Origin: a virus
IMG/VR virus record: IMGVR_UViG_3300023278_002686
Span: 32,001 to 96,000 of that record
DNA length: 64,000 nt
Direction: 5' to 3' (one strand)
This document shows, in pieces, positions 6,848 to 60,356 of the stretch. Numbering within the stretch: the first letter of the stretch is position 1; each line of letters starts with the position of its first letter. Both the position numbers and the translations under genes were made by a program. The notes under the pieces are model-generated. The model made no database searches and was not told the origin of the DNA. It worked only from the letters and a program-made list of their open reading frames with translations.

Positions 6848-8880
6848 TGAGTTTACCTCAAAAAATAGAAAATGGATCTTTTTTAATATCTGATTTATTA
6901 CAAGGCGATGATAAAATATCAAAAAGATCTGATTTTAATGAATTGTCTAATGAAGAATTACAAGAAAGTTTAAGATTAATATATAATAATAAATTTCTTT
7001 CACCTGAAAAGAAAAAATATTTATTAATGCACAGTTGGAAGATACATTATACAATTAAACCTCCTAATATACAAGAATTTTTAACTGAAGAATGGATAGG
7101 ACCAACTGCTAGATCTCTTCATCCTCACGTAATTAAGATATTATGTGAGTATTGGAAATCAGATTCTCCTTATAGAAATTTAATATTAGCCACATCGATT
7201 GGTACTGGTAAAACAACAATGAGTGCTATTTCAATGTTATATATAATAGTTCATTTAATGTGCATGAGAGATATAAAAAGATTTTTCGGACTAGCTCAAT
7301 CAGGAAGTATTTTAATTGCATTGATCTCTTTTACATTACATAAAGCGGGTCAAATTTTATTACAAAAACTTATTCAAATATTATGTTCTACTGAGAAGTT
7401 TAGAAGAGTTAATCGTGAAGAAAGAATACTTGTTGCTCAAAAAGAAACTCCTGATAAATTAATATGGACTACTGCCGGTAGAATGGGTAGCGTTCAATTT
7501 GCTGGAGATGTTCATGTTATGTTAGCATCTTCTCCTACAGCGATATTAGGGTTAGATATGATTGCAGCTGTTTTATCTGAAATATCATTCTTTCTAGATC
7601 AAGGTTATTCTTCAGAGTATATTTGGAGAATGTATAATGATACAAAAGGTCGTATTCAAAGTAGATTTAGAAAAAAATATCTTACTACATGTATATTAGA
7701 CTCGTCACCCAATGATATGGAAGAATCTCCTATTGATAAATATATTTTTACAGGAGAAGCTTATAAAGATCCTTCTAATTATATAATGACAGGTGCTCAT
7801 TGGGAATATTTACCAGATAACCATCCAGAATGGCAAAAAACAGGCGAGACATTTCCAGTATTTAAAGGAGATGGAAGTAATCCAGCTCAAGTATTAACCG
7901 AAACTGAAGTAGAGAAATACAATAAAGAAGATATATATAATGTTCCTATTGATATTAAACAACTATTTATAGATAACACAGTTAAATCTGTAAAGGATTG
8001 GTGTGGCTGGCCTGCCGGAAGTCAAAATAAAATCATAAATGATTTTTCTATTATCGAGAAGATGTTTGACGATAATCTTATTAATATATATACTCATATA
8101 TACGCTCCTTCTACATCTGTTCCTGAAAAATTAATATGGAATCAAGTTTGTAAAAAATTCTTTGTTGATATAAATGGACATTATGAATTTTATAGATCTC
8201 CATATGCTCTTAGATATATTCATATAGATCAATCTGAAACTGGAGATATTACAGGAATTTCTATGTGTCATGCTGAAGTTAATAAAAAAGGAGAACAAGT
8301 ATATATTTTAGATTTTACATTGGCTATTTCTCCTAATAAAGCACGTATTAATTTAGAAGCAATGCCCTGTTTTATTGAAGATTTGACAAAAATCGGACGT
8401 ATAAATTTAAAAAGAGTTACATTTGACAGTTATCAAAGTTCGATGGCTATTCAAAAATTAAAAAATAAAGGATATGATGCTGCTTTACTTTCAGTTGATA
8501 GAGATATAAATCCGTATATGACTTTTGTAGCTTATATGAATAGTGGACGAATTAAAGCAGGTAGAAATATTTATCTTAAAAATAACTTTAAGTCATTAAG
8601 AGAAGTCAAAACTAATTCAGGAAAAAGAAAAATAGATCATCTTATAGGTAAATTAGATAAAGTAAATAATAACAATAATTGGATTACTTCTACGACTGGA
8701 TATTATGCTAAGGATATTTCAGATTCAGCATGTGGAGCAGTTTGGACTTGTATTAATGATTATCAAGGTATTCCAAAATATGTTTATGAAGAAAAGAAAA
8801 TGATTACTGAGAAAAATAAAAATATAAAAATAAAATCAGAACTATATAATAAAATACAGGAATTAGGATATTCCTTATAA
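6847..8880 (+). CDS. terL: terminase large subunit
   Basis: Walker A SIGTGKT, Walker B-like AVLSE, DSSP coupling motif, nuclease HIDQS..GD, VTFDSYQS, KDISD. Confidence 0.85.
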   Translation: MSLPQKIENGSFLISDLLQGDDKISKRSDFNELSNEELQESLRLIYNNKFLSPEKKKYLLMHSWKIHYTIKPPNIQEFLTEEWIGPTARSLHPHVIKILCEYWKSDSPYRNLILATSIGTGKTTMSAISMLYIIVHLMCMRDIKRFFGLAQSGSILIALISFTLHKAGQILLQKLIQILCSTEKFRRVNREERILVAQKETPDKLIWTTAGRMGSVQFAGDVHVMLASSPTAILGLDMIAAVLSEISFFLDQGYSSEYIWRMYNDTKGRIQSRFRKKYLTTCILDSSPNDMEESPIDKYIFTGEAYKDPSNYIMTGAHWEYLPDNHPEWQKTGETFPVFKGDGSNPAQVLTETEVEKYNKEDIYNVPIDIKQLFIDNTVKSVKDWCGWPAGSQNKIINDFSIIEKMFDDNLINIYTHIYAPSTSVPEKLIWNQVCKKFFVDINGHYEFYRSPYALRYIHIDQSETGDITGISMCHAEVNKKGEQVYILDFTLAISPNKARINLEAMPCFIEDLTKIGRINLKRVTFDSYQSSMAIQKLKNKGYDAALLSVDRDINPYMTFVAYMNSGRIKAGRNIYLKNNFKSLREVKTNSGKRKIDHLIGKLDKVNNNNNWITSTTGYYAKDISDSACGAVWTCINDYQGIPKYVYEEKKMITEKNKNIKIKSELYNKIQELGYSL

Positions 8881-8891
8881 AGGAGATATAT

Positions 8892-9029
8892 ATGGGTGAT
8901 GTAGTTCTAAATGAACAAGATTTAAGTAAAGAACAATTTGAAGAAAAACAAGAAAAAATTGAAAAACAACCTGATGTTAAAATTGTTAAAATTAAAGAAG
9001 ATACATATCGTACAAAAGTTTATGGTTAA
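8892..9029 (+). CDS. small protein (not in ORF track)
   Basis: AAAGGAG RBS; 45 aa MGDVVLNEQDLSKEQFEEK... Confidence 0.6.
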   Translation: MGDVVLNEQDLSKEQFEEKQEKIEKQPDVKIVKIKEDTYRTKVYG

Positions 9030-9030
9030 A

Positions 9031-9058
9031 TTGACATTTTAATAAATTTTTATATTAT
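9031..9058 (+). promoter_or_regulatory. sigma70-like promoter of candidate ncRNA
   Basis: TTGACA-N16-TATTAT. Confidence 0.7.
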
Positions 9059-9064
9059 AGTAAT

Positions 9065-9351
9065 ATAAGAAATATATAGTTTTCTAGCCAATTATATATG
9101 GATAAAATTAATAAAACTAAAGGCTTTTAGTAGGTCTAAATCTATACTTTGTTGAAAGTATGCCTCTTACTAAAGTCTAACTGTCTGACTAGATCACTTA
9201 GAATGATAATGGACTCCGAATTATGGATTTTAAGGCGACGATAACTAATAATAATAGGAGCGTAAGAGAAGGTTCGTTGGAAACTTAAAGCATACGATAA
9301 GTGCTCCATTGGGAAAATGCTATTAGAAATAAAACTAATAGCATTTTTTTT
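9065..9351 (+). ncRNA. candidate structured non-coding RNA (~285 nt), family unknown
   Basis: No long + strand ORF in a gene-dense genome, GC-richer, own promoter and terminator, several stems with G-U pairs (9122-9134/9166-9177, 9144-9150/9155-9161, 9257-9263/9301-9307). Confidence 0.55.
9314..9351 (+). terminator. rho-independent terminator
   Basis: AAAATGCTATTAG-aaataaaa-CTAATAGCATTTT plus T tract. Confidence 0.85.
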
Positions 9352-9407
9352 GATAATTTCTTTCTTTCTTATATATATAAGTATATTAAATAAGGAGGAA
9401 TAATAAT

Positions 9408-9599
9408 ATGATAACAACTACTGTAGATTACCATTATTTAGAGTTTTCTTTAAAAATAAAGAATCCTAAAATTAGGATACTACATGAGAATAAATCTCAA
9501 ACATTAGAAGAAGAATTATTTGATAAGTTAGCAAAATTATCTAAAAAATTTACTAAAAAAATAGCAAAAAGAGATGGTAAATTAAAATGTCAAAAATAA
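9408..9599 (+). CDS. hypothetical protein
   Basis: AAGGAGG RBS; follows a TTGATA promoter-like site at 9350. Confidence 0.6.
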   Translation: MITTTVDYHYLEFSLKIKNPKIRILHENKSQTLEEELFDKLAKLSKKFTKKIAKRDGKLKCQK

Positions 9600-20745: not shown

Positions 20746-21153
20746 ATGACAACAGAAAATACAAAACTTTTTAACCTATTTAAAGAAGAATGTTTATATT
20801 GGATTAATGAATTTTCATTAAATGATTGGGAAGTATCATTTGATCGTACTGATGATTATGAATGTGTTGCAAAGATATGTTGGAATACGTTAGCTAAAAA
20901 TGCTACAATTGTATTATCTAGTAGATTAGATAAAGAAAGTTCTCATGAGTTTTATATTAGAGGAGCAGCTTTTCATGAAGTATGTGAGTTATTATTAAGT
21001 TATTTAGTTGATGAATTAATTCCAATATATGCATCTGAATATATTCAAGAAAAAGTGCACTCAATTATTAGAAGATTAGAAAATACATTTTTTAATAAAA
21101 AATATGACAAATTAAGAAAAGATTATATTAATAAATTAGGGAGTTACAAATGA
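20746..21153 (+). CDS. hypothetical protein with zincin-like HExxE motif
   Basis: AFHEVCELL. Confidence 0.5.
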   Translation: MTTENTKLFNLFKEECLYWINEFSLNDWEVSFDRTDDYECVAKICWNTLAKNATIVLSSRLDKESSHEFYIRGAAFHEVCELLLSYLVDELIPIYASEYIQEKVHSIIRRLENTFFNKKYDKLRKDYINKLGSYK

Positions 21154-21704
21154 ATTTATGTGAAATATGCAAAGACGATAGAAAAATTTTCTATTCAACA
21201 AAATGTAAACAATCTCTTTGCGTAAAACATTATATGCAATTGAAAAGATTTGAAAAAATAAGAGATAATACACCGTCTATTCCTAAAAAAAATAACGAAT
21301 GGATTAAGAAAAAAGATCATTATATATTACGTATTCATACTAAAAATAAGTATAATGATGTTTTAATTGATTTAAATGATTTTGCAAAAGTATCTAGATA
21401 TCATTGGAATATTATTTCTAATAGATATGTTATACATGCAAAATCTAAAACTTATTTATCTAATTTACTATTAAATTCTAAAGATGTTAATAAAAAAGTT
21501 TTACATATAGATGGAAATAGTCTAGATAATAGAAAAGAAAATTTAAAAATAATTGATATACATAAATATTTAGAAAAAGGAATTTCTTTTGATAAAGATA
21601 CAGGCAAATATGTAATATATTTATATATGGGTAGATATAATACATTAAAAGAAGCTCAAACAAAGAAAAAAACTTTTGATAAAATATTACAGGAGATGAA
21701 ATGA
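21150..21704 (+). CDS. HNH homing endonuclease-like protein
   Basis: VLHIDGNSLDNRKENL followed by truncated AP2-like KGISFDK...YMGRY. Confidence 0.75.
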   Translation: MNLCEICKDDRKIFYSTKCKQSLCVKHYMQLKRFEKIRDNTPSIPKKNNEWIKKKDHYILRIHTKNKYNDVLIDLNDFAKVSRYHWNIISNRYVIHAKSKTYLSNLLLNSKDVNKKVLHIDGNSLDNRKENLKIIDIHKYLEKGISFDKDTGKYVIYLYMGRYNTLKEAQTKKKTFDKILQEMK

Positions 21705-45728: not shown

Positions 45729-46346
45729 ATGCCTGTACCAATAACGAATGAATTTACATTAAGAAAATTAGTTCAAAATTCATATCAATATATGAGAAAT
45801 AGATTTGATAATTTAGAAAGAGATTCTGTAAGAATGATTCGAGTTATTAAAGTCCATGTATATGATGCAAAAGAACCTGGAAAAGCAAGAACTACTTATC
45901 GAATTTTATCTCAGTCTACTCCTCAATATTGGCCTTATTTCACTCAAAAAGATTCAAGAGGTCGATTAAGAAGAACTCAAAGAAAATATAAACATCAATA
46001 TGAAGTTGTAATCCAAGTAGATAAACTTTCTATAGATGTTCCTTTTAAAGGAAGAACTGGAGCCGATAGAAAATGGAGATTTGATGCAGCTGGAAGATCT
46101 AGAAAAAACTCAAGAGGACAAGTAATTGAAGGTACTAATATTAAATTAGGAATTAATGGAGATTTCTTTTTTAGATGTTCTTATCTTTGGAAATTAAGAG
46201 GAATTCTTTATGGCCGAAATTGGGCAGCTGGACCTCCTAAAAAAACAAATCCTAAGGAAATTATATTTGCAGACAAACATTTTTTATCTACAATAAAAGC
46301 TCTTATGGATAATAGAATTTTACAAGGAGAAATGAATTGGACATAA
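45729..46346 (+). CDS. late protein with degenerate SWIM-like motif
   Basis: DFFFR..Y...G...P..TNP...DKHF; ACTATA TACAT ATG. Confidence 0.55.
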   Translation: MPVPITNEFTLRKLVQNSYQYMRNRFDNLERDSVRMIRVIKVHVYDAKEPGKARTTYRILSQSTPQYWPYFTQKDSRGRLRRTQRKYKHQYEVVIQVDKLSIDVPFKGRTGADRKWRFDAAGRSRKNSRGQVIEGTNIKLGINGDFFFRCSYLWKLRGILYGRNWAAGPPKKTNPKEIIFADKHFLSTIKALMDNRILQGEMNWT

Positions 46347-46579
46347 ATAAAGAAGAAAGATTTGAATTTATAATAGATGAGTATAATACAATTATTTATG
46401 ATAAAGATATTAAGATTTGGTGGCTAGAAAAAGAATCAGATGATGATCACACCACTATGGAAATTATTTGTAGTGACACGATTGATTTTCCAGAAGAAGG
46501 ATTTATAAGTATAAATGAAGATTTCACCTTGACCTTAGAACTTTTTGAAAAATATAAAAGTATAATTAATAATCTTTAA
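46337..46579 (+). CDS. hypothetical acidic protein
   Basis: AAGGAG RBS, TTG start. Confidence 0.5.
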   Translation: MDINKEERFEFIIDEYNTIIYDKDIKIWWLEKESDDDHTTMEIICSDTIDFPEEGFISINEDFTLTLELFEKYKSIINNL

Positions 46580-46638
46580 TATTAAGTTGTTTTATTAAAT
46601 CTTTACTATAATATTATATACGTTAGGAGTAAGATATA

Positions 46639-46899
46639 ATGAAGATATTAAAAGAAGCTGGTGATACTATTTCTCCCATAGGAGTGTTTAATACAAAAAA
46701 TAGATTAGGAAAAAATTTAGGAAGCATTGAAGCTTTTGTAGGATCAAATCCTAAACAGAGTCAAGATTTTCTTGTAGGTTTAAAAATAAACTCAGGTAGT
46801 AAATATAATTATTTATCTTGGGATGATGCTATTAAGTTAGCAAATGATTTAAAAGCAGCTCTTAAAAGTAAAAAGAAATACCAACACATGGGGATTTAA
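46639..46899 (+). CDS. putative internal virion protein
   Basis: MKILKE leader; late motif at 46605. Confidence 0.6.
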   Translation: MKILKEAGDTISPIGVFNTKNRLGKNLGSIEAFVGSNPKQSQDFLVGLKINSGSKYNYLSWDDAIKLANDLKAALKSKKKYQHMGI

Positions 46900-46900
46900 C

Positions 46901-47182
46901 ATGAAATTAAAAGAAGAAATAAACATAAATAAGATAATTACAGATCTTCAAGGAGATTTTTCTGGATCTAATGAAGATCAAATGAGAGGAGTTCAACTTC
47001 TAAAAGGATTAGCTATTTCAGATGATTCTTTAGCTAATAATTTTATGAAACTTTTAGATAGAGCTATAACTCAAATTGCTCAAAAAATTCTAACTAAAGA
47101 TATTAAATTAGACACTTTTGCAATTATGAGAGAAGAAATTAATAAAGAAGTTAAAGAAGTAAAAAAAATATTAGGAGAATAG
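46901..47182 (+). CDS. putative internal virion protein
   Basis: MKLKEE leader. Confidence 0.55.
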   Translation: MKLKEEININKIITDLQGDFSGSNEDQMRGVQLLKGLAISDDSLANNFMKLLDRAITQIAQKILTKDIKLDTFAIMREEINKEVKEVKKILGE

Positions 47183-47183
47183 T

Positions 47184-47366
47184 ATGAGAATATTAAAAGA
47201 AGTTGAACCTACATCTAAAGAAATATATGCTCGATATTTATATTATATGGACGACTATACAGGAAAAAAAAATATGGAATCATGGGAAGCTATTGAAAGA
47301 ACAGCTGACTGGTTTAATAGAGATAAAGAATATATTAGAAAAGTAATACAAAAAAGAGGAAAATAG
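47184..47366 (+). CDS. putative internal virion protein
   Basis: MRILKE leader. Confidence 0.6.
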   Translation: MRILKEVEPTSKEIYARYLYYMDDYTGKKNMESWEAIERTADWFNRDKEYIRKVIQKRGK

Positions 47367-47377
47367 GAGAATAATAA

Positions 47378-47743
47378 ATGGCAGCAGTAGCACCTAAATT
47401 ATTAGTAAAATTAACTGGTGAACAGAATGTTACTAAAATAAATAAAGAAATTACATGGACTCTCACATCTAAATTAGAACAAAATTTAGTTCTTAATAAT
47501 GCTGATACTGCTGTAAGAATTACTCTAGCAGATATAGGAACTGATGTAAGATTAGTAGTATTTGAATCTACAGCAGCTTTTACAGTTACAGTTTCTAAAG
47601 ATTCTGAAATTATGGATTTCGAAGTTCAAGATCTATTTATATTTACTCCTTCTGATAGTTTTACAGATGGATTTTCTTATTTTGAAATAACTACAGATAG
47701 TTCTTCAGATCAGACTATCAATGTTAATATATTTGGAGAATAA
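47378..47743 (+). CDS. putative beta-rich structural protein
   Basis: Thr/Val/Ser-rich beta-strand pattern like the tail genes. Confidence 0.5.
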   Translation: MAAVAPKLLVKLTGEQNVTKINKEITWTLTSKLEQNLVLNNADTAVRITLADIGTDVRLVVFESTAAFTVTVSKDSEIMDFEVQDLFIFTPSDSFTDGFSYFEITTDSSSDQTINVNIFGE

Positions 47744-47825
47744 TGTGACTTTTTTAAAAAAAGAGTGTACTTTCTTCAAAAAATATAGTATAATTAATAA
47801 TATAAGTACCTTGGAGGGTAAATAA

Positions 47826-48134
47826 ATGAAAATTTTAAATTTTAATGAAGATAAACAAGCTATTGATGAATTACGAAATTTTATAGAAAAAAACGGATTA
47901 CGAAAACCTTCAGATTGGGATGATCTTAAAGTACAAAATATAAATTCATTATCATCTAATGCGAAAAAATATTTAAAAAGTTTACCTTTTGAGATTGCTA
48001 CTGAAAATCGTCCTTTTAATGTTAAAATTAAAACTGAGAATATGATTCATAAGCTTAAATATAACTATAAACAAGTTTATTTAATAAATACGGAAGGATA
48101 TAATTATCCTAGATATATGGTGAGGATAAAATAA
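47826..48134 (+). CDS. putative internal virion protein
   Basis: MKILNFNE leader; TGTACT-N17-TATAAT promoter at 47766. Confidence 0.6.
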   Translation: MKILNFNEDKQAIDELRNFIEKNGLRKPSDWDDLKVQNINSLSSNAKKYLKSLPFEIATENRPFNVKIKTENMIHKLKYNYKQVYLINTEGYNYPRYMVRIK

Positions 48135-48367
48135 TGAGAATATTAAAAGAAATTAATAAAATCAATTGGAAAAATCTAATTAATCATTTTTTTAAAACGA
48201 GAGCTATAGCTGGTGGACATAACAGAGATGCTCGCATTGATGATGTAAAGAATGGAAGGATATTTATATCAATGAAAAAATTAAATGCTAAACCAACTGA
48301 TTCTTATGTTGATCAAATAAATTTTCCTATTGAAAAAGCTGAATTATATTTAATTCTTGAAAATTAA
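48134..48367 (+). CDS. putative internal virion protein
   Basis: MRILKE leader. Confidence 0.6.
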   Translation: MRILKEINKINWKNLINHFFKTRAIAGGHNRDARIDDVKNGRIFISMKKLNAKPTDSYVDQINFPIEKAELYLILEN

Positions 48368-48381
48368 ATGAGGAAATTAGA

Positions 48382-48627
48382 ATGAGAATCTTAGAAGATT
48401 ATCCTAAAGATGATGTTGAAACTCAAAACGAAGCTTTACAAATAGCTCAGCAATTAGGAGTAGATTTTTCTAAAGTAGATAAATCTGAGTTTATTAAAGG
48501 ATATGATGTTGAACATGAGCATGGGGAAACTGTAGGAAATAATAAAGAAATTATTGCAAAAATTACTTTGGATCATTTGAATGAAGATCCAAAATATTAC
48601 ACTAAATTATTAAGTCTAGGACTTTAG
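48382..48627 (+). CDS. DUF5661-like protein with MRILE leader
   Basis: GYDVEHEH...KITLDHLNEDPKYYTKL. Confidence 0.7.
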   Translation: MRILEDYPKDDVETQNEALQIAQQLGVDFSKVDKSEFIKGYDVEHEHGETVGNNKEIIAKITLDHLNEDPKYYTKLLSLGL

Positions 48628-48636
48628 GAAAAACTT

Positions 48637-48906
48637 ATGAAAATGTTACAAGAATTTTATTTGGAATATGATTTATCTACAAATAAACTTAAAATAGATA
48701 CATTAATGCCAAATGAAGCAAAATTTCTTAAAAATAAATTATCAATTGATGGATATAAGGTTGACTATAAACCTAGTAACGGAATATATTATCATCACAT
48801 AATTATATATAAAAATATAAATGATAGAGAACGAATAGCTAAATTATTAAAAAAATATTTAAATTTAAAAACATTTATAGATAGCTCTACAAATATTAAA
48901 TATTAA
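48637..48906 (+). CDS. putative internal virion protein
   Basis: MKMLQE leader. Confidence 0.55.
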   Translation: MKMLQEFYLEYDLSTNKLKIDTLMPNEAKFLKNKLSIDGYKVDYKPSNGIYYHHIIIYKNINDRERIAKLLKKYLNLKTFIDSSTNIKY

Positions 48907-48915
48907 AGGAATATT

Positions 48916-49623
48916 ATGAATAAAGTATTTAATACAATTAAGAAAAAATATCCTTCAGGTAAGAATGGTTGGATTATAATAGATGAAGATGGTTTTCTTG
49001 TCTATTTTCATAAAGCGTCTAAACGTGGAATAATGTTTGGATATGAGAATGGAAAAGTAGATACTTCATTAGGTAAGATGGATCCTAAAGATCAAGAATT
49101 CGATTATATGATAGTAGATGAAGGAGAACATGTTCATTCAGAAAAAGATTTTATGAATAAAATGTTTCCAGTGTTAGATACTATATTTGATTTAACTAAT
49201 AAAGATGTTTGGAGTTACGGGAGAATAAAGATGAAAGAAAATATAACAGGAAAAAGAAAAGCTACCAGAAAGGCTCTAGAGGTAAGAGTATCTTGGACTG
49301 GTAAGTCATTTATTATTAATTGGCAAGGTGACAAATCATCTGGACCTGTTCATTTTACAGGAACTAGAGAAGAATTTGCTAGAATGCTCCAAAAACTTCA
49401 AGCTAAAGATTCATTAACAAAACCTTTAATGAAACGACAACTTACTTATAAAGAAATGGTTGACAATATAATAGAACAAAAAGATTGCATTGTAATGATA
49501 TGGTCTAATGTCTTAGATAATATAAAAGGAACTATGTTTAATATGAATACTTTAAGAGATATCTTTAGAGAAGAATATGAAGTAGATCAAAGAAAAGATA
49601 ATTATTTTAAAGGAATTATATAA
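48916..49623 (+). CDS. hypothetical protein within internal-protein array
   Basis: 235 aa ORF, AAAGGA RBS. Confidence 0.55.
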   Translation: MNKVFNTIKKKYPSGKNGWIIIDEDGFLVYFHKASKRGIMFGYENGKVDTSLGKMDPKDQEFDYMIVDEGEHVHSEKDFMNKMFPVLDTIFDLTNKDVWSYGRIKMKENITGKRKATRKALEVRVSWTGKSFIINWQGDKSSGPVHFTGTREEFARMLQKLQAKDSLTKPLMKRQLTYKEMVDNIIEQKDCIVMIWSNVLDNIKGTMFNMNTLRDIFREEYEVDQRKDNYFKGII

Positions 49624-49658
49624 TTTATAAAAAATCAAAATACCTTGGAGGTAAATGA

Positions 49659-49910
49659 ATGAAAATTTTAAAAGAAGTTGTTAATCAGATTGATGTAGAT
49701 CTTAGTGATGATAATGCTAAGTTGTTTGTGAAATTATTAAGGAGTGCTGAAAAAAAATATAATCTAGAGATTATAAAAATTAAAATGCATGGTCCTGGTG
49801 GTGGAAATCCAAATGTTTTTTTTAAAGGAAAAGAAAAAGATTTACGTGGATGGTTTGTAAATGAATATATGGGTGATGATGATGAGTTTGACGAGTTTTT
49901 TAATAGATAA
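49659..49910 (+). CDS. putative internal virion protein
   Basis: MKILKE leader; HGPGGGNP motif. Confidence 0.6.
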   Translation: MKILKEVVNQIDVDLSDDNAKLFVKLLRSAEKKYNLEIIKIKMHGPGGGNPNVFFKGKEKDLRGWFVNEYMGDDDEFDEFFNR

Positions 49911-49993
49911 TTTATAAAAAATTGGAACTAAATACTGATAATAGAGCTGTTGCATTTAATAAATTTGTAATAGCTCTATTAAAATATGAGCCG

Positions 49994-50362
49994 AAAGGAG
50001 TTAAATAATGAAAATATTAAATTTTAATGAAAAAAGCATAAATGATTACACTTTTTATGAAATTTCGTTTGATGAAGATGACGATGACAGAGGAGAGCAT
50101 GTTATGTATGTTATGGTTGACAAACAAAAAAATGGGTATATGATAGAAGCTGATTTAGATGGAGATTGGGATTCACCGTGGAGAGATGGAGATATTGAAG
50201 CATCCACATTTCGAAACTTTGAAAGAAGTCAAGGTGTGAATAAAATTCGTAAAAATGATATACCTAAAGACATTTTAAAAGCGTTATTAGCGGAAGTATA
50301 AATAATAGAATATATGAATGAAAATTTATACACTTTAAAGGAGTTAAATAATGAAAATATTA
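49994..50362 (+). repeat. 26 bp direct repeat covering RBS and leader
   Basis: AAAGGAGTTAAATAATGAAAATATTA at 49994-50019 and 50337-50362. Confidence 0.85.
50008..50301 (+). CDS. putative internal virion protein
   Basis: MKILNFNE leader. Confidence 0.6.
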   Translation: MKILNFNEKSINDYTFYEISFDEDDDDRGEHVMYVMVDKQKNGYMIEADLDGDWDSPWRDGDIEASTFRNFERSQGVNKIRKNDIPKDILKALLAEV

Positions 50363-50500
50363 GAAGATCTTAAAATCTATGACACATTTGAACTCTTTAA
50401 AAAACATCAACCTAAGAGTAAGAATAAGGAATATGGACCTTTTCAAGTAGAAGGTAAGATCTTTCAATATGTATATCAAGTATATGACGCATTTAAATAA
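50351..50500 (+). CDS. putative internal virion protein (not in ORF track)
   Basis: AAAGGAG RBS; 49 aa MKILEDLKIYDTFELF... Confidence 0.6.
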   Translation: MKILEDLKIYDTFELFKKHQPKSKNKEYGPFQVEGKIFQYVYQVYDAFK

Positions 50501-50527
50501 CTATATTAACAGATAAGGAGATATTAA

Positions 50528-54667: not shown

Positions 54668-55630
54668 ATGAAAACAGGTATTACTCTTAAGAAAAAGTTA
54701 GGTCTAAATAATATAGCTGTTGTAAAAGTTTCTAGGATTCTTGATTTACCTACTCCATCATATTTAATATGGTATGATTCACATAGACCAACTCGACCTA
54801 TTACAACTCGTACAGTAAAAAAATACCCTGGAGTTGGTCAAGTTTATAGAGGAATAAAAGGATTTAAAGAACCTGTTAGATTCACACCTCCTATGTTAAT
54901 AGAAGATTTTACTGGAAATCTTAGTACTGGTCTTTATTTTGCAATAGATCTTTCAGGAAGATTTTTAGTAGACACTAAAATATTAGAAAATAAACAAAAA
55001 CTAAATTATTCAATAATAGTTGAATTTCTTCAATTAGCAGATTTAATGAAATCACAAGGTATGAGTGATTTTACAAGACCTTATAGAAGTGAAAGAAATA
55101 GAGTAACTGGAATAGAATCAAATGTTGCTAAATTAGTTGATTTAGAATTAAATCAAGAAGATAACTCTATCACATTTAAATGGTTAACAGAACCTACTGA
55201 TAAGTATGGTCCTGAAGCTCAATTTAAACAAGTAGATCCATCTACACTAGCTATGGGATCTAATTCGTCTAAGACATATGATATGGATATTAAAATATTA
55301 AACTTTTTTGATTGGTTAGATACATATTCTAATAAAACAGAAATAACTCGTAAAGATATGAAAGATATATTTGATGTATCTTATGTTCAAGTATGGAGTA
55401 ATGATCCTTCTTTTCAATATCAAGGAATTAATTACTGGTTAACTCAAGTAGACGCAAGTATTCATCCAACTAATATAGCACCTAAACAATGGAATAATCC
55501 TGGATTACATGGAGATGGAAATGCATTTCTATCTAAACATTTAGGTGGGTTAATAAACGGAATTAAATTCTGGTATCAACCTATGGCTTCAAAGTTAACA
55601 AAAAGATTAAAGGATGAAGGAATTTTATGA
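54668..55630 (+). CDS. late protein with degenerate SWIM-like motif
   Basis: VQVWSNDPSFQYQG..Y...P...N...LSKHL; ACTATA TAATT ATG. Confidence 0.55.
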   Translation: MKTGITLKKKLGLNNIAVVKVSRILDLPTPSYLIWYDSHRPTRPITTRTVKKYPGVGQVYRGIKGFKEPVRFTPPMLIEDFTGNLSTGLYFAIDLSGRFLVDTKILENKQKLNYSIIVEFLQLADLMKSQGMSDFTRPYRSERNRVTGIESNVAKLVDLELNQEDNSITFKWLTEPTDKYGPEAQFKQVDPSTLAMGSNSSKTYDMDIKILNFFDWLDTYSNKTEITRKDMKDIFDVSYVQVWSNDPSFQYQGINYWLTQVDASIHPTNIAPKQWNNPGLHGDGNAFLSKHLGGLINGIKFWYQPMASKLTKRLKDEGIL

Positions 55631-56166
55631 GAATACTAGATGATCTTGATTTAAAGATTTTAAAAAAAGGTGAATATGTAGATTTTGCTACTCCTGTAGA
55701 TATACCTTATGAATTAATTCATGCTACAGATGATACTATTATATGTATTCCTATTATAGGAGATAAAATAGGAATTAGATATGAATTTTGTCCTCCTTAT
55801 ATGGTAAAAGATCAAGTTAGAAATTATTATACATTAATTACAGGTGGAATTAATTCAGATGAAAAATCTATTGAAGGTTTAAAGCGAGAAGTAAAGGAAG
55901 AAGCTGGAGTAATTATTAAAGATTATGACATTCTTTTTCAAAAATTAAATATACCTATTTGGAAGTCTACAGATAATAGAATGTATTTTTATATAATTCG
56001 AATTAATGATTATGAAAAAATAATACCTCCTGGAGATGGTACGAAAAATGAACAAAAGAGTGTAACAAAATGGATTACATTAGATGAATATAAAAAATTA
56101 TTAAATTTAGACAATGTAGATTACTTATTTTCCATAAGTTATTATCTTTTAAAGGGAGTTATTTAA
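55627..56166 (+). CDS. Nudix hydrolase
   Basis: Nudix box GGINSDEKSIEGLKREVKEEAG; MRILDD N-terminus. Confidence 0.88.
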   Translation: MRILDDLDLKILKKGEYVDFATPVDIPYELIHATDDTIICIPIIGDKIGIRYEFCPPYMVKDQVRNYYTLITGGINSDEKSIEGLKREVKEEAGVIIKDYDILFQKLNIPIWKSTDNRMYFYIIRINDYEKIIPPGDGTKNEQKSVTKWITLDEYKKLLNLDNVDYLFSISYYLLKGVI

Positions 56167-57990: not shown

Positions 57991-59814
57991 ATGGGAAGTA
58001 CATGGAGAATTTCAACCGCATTTTTAGATAAATCTGTTGCTATAAAAGAAACGATAGGTAGTATAGGGGCATCCGTAATTAGAGCGGCTAAAGGACCTAC
58101 TACACCAATCAAAATATTTGCAGGTCAAGAACAAAGAATTATAGATATATTTGGTAAACCAAATGCAACTTATCCTGATGTATGGGATGCTATAGAATAT
58201 AATAAAAGTTATGATTTGTGGTTAGCAGCACCTGATAAAAGCGGAAAACATGGAGGAGTTTATGTAACTCCAACGGGAACTGAATCAATTCTTAGTGGAT
58301 TTTCTTCAATAAGTAGTGTTAGTTTTACAGCACTTCCAACAGAAGAAACATTAGGATCAGGTGATGGAAGTTCAACAACTTTTGCGATTACGTTAACAGA
58401 ATATGATGATTATGTAAATCAGTCAATAGATATTCAGGCAGATGGAACATCAATAACATTGGTTGCGACTGATGCGAATCCTGAAGTATTAACTTCTGTT
58501 GATGCGACTTACGCAGGAACAGGAACATATAATAGAACAACTGGACAATTAAGTTTTACCTTTGACACAGCTCCAGTAAGTGCGGTGGCTTTAACTGCAA
58601 ATTATAATATAAGTAGAGCTGATGATATTTATTTTGCATTATTTAATAATAATAGAGAAGCTGATGATTTAGCAATTCAAGTAACCTATGCAAATAGTTT
58701 ATTTACAATTGTCGTACAAAAAATAGACGCAGACGGAAATTATATTGCATTAGATGATTCACCTTATATTGTTTCTCTTACAGCTGGCTCAAAAGATGGA
58801 TTTGGTGCTTCAAATTATATTATGGATGTATTCGATGAACATGATCACATAACTCCAGTAATAAATACAGCTTTAACAGTATCAACTTTTGTAAATGATT
58901 CAGATGTAGTCTTAATGGTTGGTGGTTCAAGAGGATCAACTGTAACAATTACAGAATTAACAACTTCTTGGAATACATTTCAAGATGCTATTAATTATGA
59001 AGCAGATATATTCTTTGATTGTACGGCAACTAGTGGAGTAGCAACTTTATTTAATACGCTTAGAAATACATATCAAAAATATTCAATTTACTTATTACAT
59101 CTAGGAAATGTAACAGCTGCAAATGCGGTAAGTACAAAAGATGCTTTAAGTCTTAACAATAATGGTATATGTATATATTGGTCTTGGTTTAAAGTAACGG
59201 ATACGTATAATAATTCATTTTTCTATTCATCTTGTATGGGTAGAATAGCTTCTAAACATGGTGCAATGACGGACGTATATAATGGTTTAGCTCCAGCTTG
59301 GATTGATGAAAATGGACATGGTGGACAATTAGGTCCTGGAATAGAAAAACAAGTTAATTCTGCAACTGAAACTCAATTAGAACTTATGGATACTAATGAA
59401 ATAAATGGTGTTGTTATTTATCCTGGATACGGAGTACTAATTACATCTCATAAAACATCTCAAACTACATTAAGTGATTATTCTTATGTAGGACATATTA
59501 GATTAAGAGATTATTTAGTTAAAAATATAATTGACAATGCACTATACGCACAAATTACAAAACTTAATGATACAGAACATAGAAATGCTGTGAAAACAAA
59601 AGCAGATTTAATTTTAAGTGGACCATTATCATTAGGATTACTAAGAGAAGCAGATTCTAAATGTGATGATCAGAATAATAATGATGCTGCATTAGCACGA
59701 AGAGAATTTATTTTGGATGTAGCTGTGAAATTTACACCTTTTTCTGACAGAATTAGGTTCAACTTTATTAATGTTGGACAAAATGTATCAGTTTCAGAAA
59801 CATTAGGTAGTTAA
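57991..59814 (+). CDS. contractile tail sheath protein
   Basis: KGPT.P...IFGKP N-terminus; C-terminal EINGV..PGYG...KT..S..SYV..RL, CDDQNN, FILDVAVKFT. Confidence 0.9.
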   Translation: MGSTWRISTAFLDKSVAIKETIGSIGASVIRAAKGPTTPIKIFAGQEQRIIDIFGKPNATYPDVWDAIEYNKSYDLWLAAPDKSGKHGGVYVTPTGTESILSGFSSISSVSFTALPTEETLGSGDGSSTTFAITLTEYDDYVNQSIDIQADGTSITLVATDANPEVLTSVDATYAGTGTYNRTTGQLSFTFDTAPVSAVALTANYNISRADDIYFALFNNNREADDLAIQVTYANSLFTIVVQKIDADGNYIALDDSPYIVSLTAGSKDGFGASNYIMDVFDEHDHITPVINTALTVSTFVNDSDVVLMVGGSRGSTVTITELTTSWNTFQDAINYEADIFFDCTATSGVATLFNTLRNTYQKYSIYLLHLGNVTAANAVSTKDALSLNNNGICIYWSWFKVTDTYNNSFFYSSCMGRIASKHGAMTDVYNGLAPAWIDENGHGGQLGPGIEKQVNSATETQLELMDTNEINGVVIYPGYGVLITSHKTSQTTLSDYSYVGHIRLRDYLVKNIIDNALYAQITKLNDTEHRNAVKTKADLILSGPLSLGLLREADSKCDDQNNNDAALARREFILDVAVKFTPFSDRIRFNFINVGQNVSVSETLGS

Positions 59815-59831
59815 TATAAAGGAGATAAATA

Positions 59832-60356
59832 ATGGGAATTATAGATGATATATATAATCAAGGTGATGACGCATTACTTGATCAATTTGAAGTGAATGTA
59901 GCTCCTCTATCTGGTGTTATAGACTCTACTAATCTTAAGTTTAGAATACAGACTTTTGATGCTCCTGAAGATAGTCTAGGAAATTATGAAATTAAATATA
60001 AAGGAATTACGGTTCAAAAGTTTAATGGTGATGATACAACTCCTAAGACTCTTTCATTTACATTAAGAGTTAATAAAGATTATTCTATATACAAAAAGTT
60101 TAAAGATTGGATAGATCTTATTAAAAATCCAGATACAGGTAATGAAACTGCTGATATAATTCAAGGAGGAATTCCTGCTTGGAGAACAGATATGACATTT
60201 AACTCAATCGATGCAAGTGGAGCTCTAACTGGATTAGAAACAACGTATAATGGTTGTTGGCCTCAAAGTATTTCAAGTATAAGTTATGATCAAGGATCAG
60301 GTGAACCAGTTAATGTAACAATTACTTGTATGTATCTTAAAAAATTAACAAATTAA
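59832..60356 (+). CDS. tail tube protein
   Basis: Follows sheath; QFEV, FKDW, GCWPQSISSISYD, VTIT. Confidence 0.8.
   Translation: MGIIDDIYNQGDDALLDQFEVNVAPLSGVIDSTNLKFRIQTFDAPEDSLGNYEIKYKGITVQKFNGDDTTPKTLSFTLRVNKDYSIYKKFKDWIDLIKNPDTGNETADIIQGGIPAWRTDMTFNSIDASGALTGLETTYNGCWPQSISSISYDQGSGEPVNVTITCMYLKKLTN

Follow-up and report, generated by a model that had tools for sequence, protein, structure and literature searches.

Ten small proteins of an uncultured T4-related phage share a short N-terminal leader that may be a prohead propeptide

An uncultured, T4-related phage carries a run of small genes whose products begin alike, and this common leader is the subject of our analysis. The stretch that we analyzed (the window, 64,000 nucleotides) comprises bases 32001-96000 of the 155,054-bp IMG/VR record IMGVR_UViG_3300023278_002686, which has 26% GC and is estimated to be 92% complete. 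The phage is a myovirus, with a sheath gene at window position 57991 and tube genes at 59832 and 60435. Between positions 46639 and 50500 lie 12 closely packed genes, all on the + strand and each preceded by a Shine-Dalgarno sequence 6 to 11 nucleotides (nt) upstream of its open reading frame (ORF) (Table 1). Two of them lack the leader. The other ten encode proteins of 49 to 102 amino acids (aa); nine start with M[KR][IM]L followed by a Glu within the next one to four residues, and the tenth starts with MKLKEE. An earlier note on this DNA had proposed that the leader is a capsid-targeting signal for injected cargo. We reread the N-termini and coordinates that it gave for the ten array genes, and all were correct, as were the coordinates of four outliers elsewhere in the window (41662 on the minus strand, 33887, 55627, and 56166). 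The region had no blastn match among 50,697 phage records. When searched against PHROGs and Pfam, the array proteins returned only the DUF5661 domain of the 48382 product and a weak match of the 49659 product to phrog_5922.

Table 1. Array genes and other features discussed in the text (window positions unless labeled otherwise; pI, isoelectric point)
Feature	Position	Strand	Remarks
Late-promoter-like motif ACTATAAT	46605..46612	+	34 nt 5′ of first array gene
Leader gene 1, MKILKE, 86 aa	46639..46899	+	pI 9.8; no Pfam/PHROG match
Leader gene 2, MKLKEE, 93 aa	46901..47182	+	Widespread ~60-residue helical phage module
Leader gene 3, MRILKE, 60 aa	47184..47366	+	pI 9.2
Leaderless gene, MAAVAPK..., 121 aa	47378..47743	+	Acidic
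Leader gene 4, MKILNFNE, 102 aa	47826..48134	+	pI 9.6; no usable Protein Atlas match
Leader gene 5, MRILKE, 77 aa	48134..48367	+	pI 9.8
Leader gene 6, MRILED, 81 aa	48382..48627	+	DUF5661 domain, residues 20-76
Leader gene 7, MKMLQE, 89 aa	48637..48906	+	pI 9.4
Leaderless gene, 235 aa	48916..49623	+	C-terminal half with homologues in relatives
Leader gene 8, MKILKE, 83 aa	49659..49910	+	Weak phrog_5922 match
Leader gene 9, MKILNFNE, 97 aa	50008..50301	+	pI 4.4
Leader gene 10, MKILED, 49 aa	50351..50500	+	
Next late-promoter-like motif ACTATATT	50500..50507	+	Precedes gene 50528; array end
Predicted protease-scaffold protein, 545 aa	genome 140954-142591 (= L005:4954-6591)	-	hhalign, AF2, Foldseek
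Cys/His-motif protein	genome 19760-20293 (= L025:761-1294)	-	Relatives: L007:1147-1686, L017:4615-5142
(I/V)PGTD(I/V)ILEKGD-like motif	L006:1435-1662, 7186-7812, 8877-9569; L022:19417-19731; L023:19080-19352; L024:6775-7395		

To learn how specific the leader is to the array, we counted starts matching M[KR][ILM]L among the 264 ORFs of at least 40 aa in the genome. Such starts head 9 of the 12 array genes and 6 of the 252 other ORFs (Fisher P = 6.9 × 10−11). The same pattern follows an internal Met in 1 of 844 cases and an ATG in any frame in 55 of 5,785 (0.95%). The count against random starts for which the earlier note had called thus shows the leader to be array specific, with controls at 0.1 to 1%. 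The note had estimated 10 to 14 cargo proteins, a soft count, since the four outliers do not stand out from the background rate of such starts (about 2% of other ORFs). Its description of the proteins as diverging after the leader was borne out: with the first eight residues removed, BLASTP found no pair below an E value of 0.001, so the word "unrelated" is valid at the sequence level. At least the 48382 and 46901 proteins are of separate origin, since one carries DUF5661 and the other a different, widespread module.

We then examined the head module of this phage, located on the minus strand at genome positions 138982-144529. Its portal gene matches Pfam PF07230, Portal_T4 (E = 3 × 10−16), and adjoins the gene of a 545-aa protein. 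With a profile of 44 homologues of this protein, hhalign aligned its N-terminal domain with the T4 prohead protease gp21 (94%, E = 1.3 × 10−7), bringing the His and Ser motifs into register. In an AlphaFold2 (AF2) model, residues 40-180 have a predicted local distance difference test score (pLDDT) of at least 85, mostly 94 to 97, and are followed by long coiled coils; residues 214-499 form a coiled coil, consistent with a scaffold. A Foldseek search of the PDB gave entry 5JBL, T4 gp21, as the top three hits (probability 1.0, target template modeling score 0.67). In the 44 homologues, the N-terminus follows M-x(0-4)-[KR]-[LIF]-[VI]-E with an invariant Glu. T4 gp21 itself begins MNEPQLLIET, and its LIE-9 site has been discussed (PMC9026906). 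The fold, the catalytic His/Ser motifs, the neighboring T4-type portal gene, and the LIE-type N-terminal site all agree with an identity as T4 gp21 (MEROPS S77). Judged by its profile alignment and modeled fold, the 545-aa protein joins a gp21-type prohead protease, as its N-terminal domain, to a coiled-coil scaffold. Across the clade, protease and a scaffold of about 300 coiled-coil residues form one polypeptide (94 homologues, 397 to 893 aa). The major capsid protein had no significant BLASTP match to T4 gp23, and a likeness between LVEKW and LLNKW is anecdotal.

The array leader can be compared directly with T4. The T4 internal proteins IPI, IPII, and IPIII carry the targeting sequence MKTYQEFIAE, which gp21 removes; there as here, otherwise unrelated small proteins have in common a brief N-terminal peptide that ends in hydrophobic-x-Glu, and a gp21-type protease is present. 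T-even internal proteins have been described as a diverse set that shares nothing but the capsid-targeting sequence (PMC3012670, PMC9026906), and one of them, IPI*, blocks the GmrSD nuclease (PMC3012670). Our array proteins have no PHROG or Pfam match to internal proteins; homology of this kind is no strict requirement, given that T-even internal proteins do not resemble one another either. Of other T4 head-core or packaged proteins, gp68 starts with MLLIPE, gp67 with MEGLIE, and the particle-borne Alt with MELITE; gp22 starts with MLKEQLIAE. Alt loses exactly six residues, being cut at ITE-6 (PMC5694885). Alt and gp68 thus show exactly the six-residue form M-x-hydrophobic-hydrophobic-x-E of the array leader. 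Here, eight of ten leaders end in [L/I]-x-E (LKE in five, LQE in one, and ILE in two). The arrangement differs from that in T4: the array has ten genes in tandem, whereas T4 has three at scattered sites, and protease and scaffold are one polypeptide here instead of separate gp21 and gp22. In the giant phages phiKZ and SPN3US, gp21-related S80 proteases cut many packaged ejection or inner-body proteins after Glu at a short [S/A/G]-x-E (PMC5694885); these differ from our case in that P3 is small rather than hydrophobic and in that the propeptides are long and have no common leader.

One array member offers a view of what may be a processing site. The 46901 protein belongs to a family built on a helical module of about 60 residues, with 248 cluster representatives at E ≤ 0.001, and is 60% identical over 62 aa to a protein encoded just 5′ of the T4-type portal gene of a relative (L024:7395-8141). 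In its AF2 model (pLDDT 87.6), residues 1-8 lie outside the helices; a fold search with this model against PDB and viral structures gave no match below an E value of 0.5. Among 83 homologues with an N-terminal extension, hydrophobic-x-E abuts the module in 67, with I, L, or V at P3 in 50 and Ala at P1′ in 42; control windows give 13 to 45%. Homologues that start directly at the module begin with MAD in 21 of 30 cases. Removal of Met from the latter group and cleavage after Glu in the former would leave nearly the same mature N-terminus. The junction therefore looks cleavage-like, with the pattern expected of a protease junction. The genomic contexts of two homologues lay on short contigs and were uninformative. 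In related phages, a motif of about 20 residues resembling (I/V)PGTD(I/V)ILEKGD occurs in many proteins, often joined to a 46901-type module by an "EESVIE"-like linker; it is not in this genome.

The array also sits among genes for virion proteins. The sequence ACTATA[AT] occurs in the 45-nt window upstream of 33 genes, compared with 5.3 expected (P = 3 × 10−17), and precedes the portal, protease-scaffold, sheath, tube, tape measure, baseplate, and terminase genes. It resembles a late promoter and is common to the array and virion genes. No terminator-like sites were seen within the array. A short way 5′ of the array is a conserved gene for a 205-aa protein (45729). In relatives L007, L008, L016, and L017, baseplate genes follow its homologue directly, and in L009, L015, L018, and L022, small genes do. 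Since what follows 45729 differs between relatives, the array occupies a variable slot among late virion genes. The 205-aa protein itself (window 45729-46346) is very basic and belongs to no Pfam or PHROG family; it has 188 matches at E ≤ 0.001, and among those listed, identity is 49 to 61%. A small acidic protein, encoded here at window 46337-46579, always follows it, and baseplate or head genes lie nearby in relatives.

On balance, we favor reading M-[KR]-I-L-(x)-E as the minimal form of a T4-type prohead propeptide, carried by proteins that would be packaged. The leader would mark small late proteins for the prohead core, the phage's own gp21-type protease would remove it after the Glu, and the mature proteins would remain beside the DNA in the filled head until both pass into the host. 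By analogy with T4 internal proteins, the capsid probably takes up the ten leader proteins; we infer targeting, cleavage, ejection, and any anti-defense role from that analogy. The comparison with T4 capsid-targeting leaders is partly supported. It gains from the gp21-type protease, the Portal_T4 portal, the N-terminal motif of the protease, the Alt and gp68 form, the late-promoter-like motif, and the 46901 junctions, and this support is real but circumstantial. A bolder version holds that six residues are a complete signal for capsid targeting and cleavage, that the 26- to 32-nt cassette captures arbitrary genes as injected cargo, and that the ten members are an arsenal of first-minute effectors predictable from sequence, some acting against restriction of glycosylated hydroxymethylcytosine DNA. 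We regard this version as possible but doubtful. This kind of system is already known from T4 capsid-targeting sequences, and the lineage is new; the T4 principle would extend to a distant clade in which protease and scaffold are fused, with no new principle established. Should the leader act as its T4 counterparts do, sequence alone would suffice to list the proteins injected by an uncultured phage along with its DNA. The injected orphans, otherwise unrecognizable, would be prime anti-defense candidates. In that case, a six-residue tag would also prove sufficient, which is relevant to engineered protein delivery by phage heads.

Several observations weigh against a T4-type propeptide. The leader has 6 to 8 residues, compared with 10 to 19 in T4 internal-protein targeting sequences (PMC9026906). 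Alt is an enzyme of 682 aa with a further cut at its C-terminus, and its six-residue propeptide may or may not be the targeting element. The T4 baseplate protein gp48 starts with MAIVKE, so the leader form is not exclusive to head proteins. Two array leaders (47826 and 50008) end in F-N-E rather than [LI]-x-E. A loose hydrophobic-x-E is no commoner at N-termini than in deeper windows, in this genome and in relatives, and fit to the cutting rule alone is therefore weak support. The syntenic small-gene arrays of relatives L015-L018 and L022-L024 (for example, L022 4224-8123) have no strict common leader. The Pfam model of gp21, PF03420, found no match in this genome at E ≤ 10; the gp21 relationship is visible through profile-profile and fold comparison, not through the curated model. 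Finally, none of the array proteins resembles a known anti-defense protein. We also considered enrichment of the leader across the clade as support. In relatives, M-x-[ILVM][ILVM]-x-E starts occur in 7 of 192 ORFs and after 0 of 692 internal Mets. We dropped this argument: the rate outside the array in the present genome is much the same (6/252), and starts of this kind are found in T4 as well.

The main rival is that the conserved element acts in nucleic acid rather than in protein: a portable cassette for translation initiation and recombination that lets captured ORFs be translated efficiently, perhaps with coregulation through, for example, a RegA-like repressor, and with a functionless peptide. 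The Shine-Dalgarno sequence, ATG, and leader do recur together as DNA. A 32-nt stretch is present five times; a 55-nt repeat, spanning Shine-Dalgarno and leader, is common to 47826 and 50008, and a perfect 26-nt repeat, spanning Shine-Dalgarno, ATG, and three codons, to 50351 and 50008. The A/U-rich sequence also favors initiation. However, conservation is highest within the coding region, and the spacer from Shine-Dalgarno to ATG is weakly conserved. Among the leader genes, codons 2-4 have 84% pairwise DNA identity and codons 5-6 have 62%, compared with 43 to 52% in the 15 nt upstream and 34 to 38%, the background level, downstream. Codon 2 is AAA, AAG, or AGA and codon 3 is ATA, ATT, ATC, or ATG; every change is synonymous or conservative. 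Because identity peaks in codons 2-4 and wobble positions vary without loss of the amino acids, the constraint looks to be at the level of the peptide. Moreover, relatives of 31 to 41% GC have the same type of peptide, in different codons, at the start of their protease. We therefore consider a purely nucleic acid role unlikely. The 26- to 32-nt cassette of Shine-Dalgarno and leader is probably a recombination joint that gives new cargo genes the tag.

The peptide could also be a signal unrelated to the capsid, such as a degron, a docking strand for one partner common to these proteins, of host or phage origin, or a tag recognized by a modifying enzyme. In favor of such a signal, this genome has a second, different shared tag on eight proteins as well as a radical-SAM/SPASM enzyme, and a 63-aa ORF starting with MKILQE abuts the radical-SAM gene. 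But the MKIL leader lacks Cys, Ser, and Thr as residues for modification, and the enzyme gene does not adjoin the array but lies about 33 kb from it; as a candidate substrate, the Ser-rich tag fits better. A signal of this sort would also leave aside the specific match to the N-termini of the protease itself, T4 Alt, and gp68. We judge it improbable. The second tag, MK[KRS]R.TF[VA]SNSSSSS[FY], heads eight otherwise different proteins of 92 to 172 aa at genome positions 145921-152832 on the minus strand. The radical-SAM/SPASM enzyme (Pfam PF04055 and PF13186) is encoded at 115020-115985 on the same strand (L003:19020-19985). These two may be a tag-enzyme pair, so one phage would carry two tag systems.

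A still weaker proposition is that the array genes arose from one ancestral small gene by tandem duplication and rapid divergence, with the N-terminus as the last recognizable remnant. The tandem layout, the similar sizes, and the common DNA at the start region would fit it. There is no similarity past residue 8, though, DUF5661 and the 46901 module are of separate origin, and the retention of the first six residues alone is left unexplained; we think such an origin very improbable. MK starts are common (59 of the 264 ORFs), but chance in an AT-rich genome has a negligible probability, as the Fisher test rejects it and the low internal-Met and all-ATG rates show that neither AT richness nor frequent MK starts explain the leader.

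Among the other array members, the DUF5661 protein (48382; PF18905, E = 2 × 10−17) has the leader and a linker ahead of its domain; the N-termini of DUF5661 homologues in huge-phage records are unrelated. A word-based search of 5.8 billion proteins with the 49659 product returned only itself. The C-terminal half of the leaderless 48916 product matched relatives by tblastn at L015 11901-12146 (E = 3 × 10−9), L022 5001-5243 (E = 6 × 10−8), and L016 7036-7215 (E = 7 × 10−4). It looks like a fusion, in which residues ~118-217 match relatives and the N-terminal ~115 residues are extra. By eye and unscored, the small proteins L009:2826 (MIVMKE) and L018:11045 (MRILNE) resemble further members.

Outside the array, a NUDIX hydrolase (window 55627-56166) starts with MRILDD; in relatives, L009:4304-5329 starts with MNILRE, and the L016 NUDIX protein starts with MGLKIT. 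The NUDIX start here has Asp where a cut would fall, and in T4, Asp in place of the final Glu stops processing but not targeting (PMC9026906). A conserved 175- to 179-aa protein with Cys/His motifs, which has no Pfam family, starts with MKMLNFEEFIEFY, MTKTYEEFISFY, or MKTLEQFIQFY and resembles both T4 MKTYQEFIAE and array MKILNFNE. We considered the 177-aa MKMLNFEEFIEFY protein as a carrier of a T4-like tag and rejected it: its N-terminus is conserved in a nuclease-like family among nonvirion genes and is probably part of the fold. In relative L024, a 67-aa protein with the Pfam Acb2_Tad1_hairpin domain, of the anti-CBASS/Thoeris sponge type, is encoded at 21080-21283, about 8 kb 3′ of the major capsid gene.

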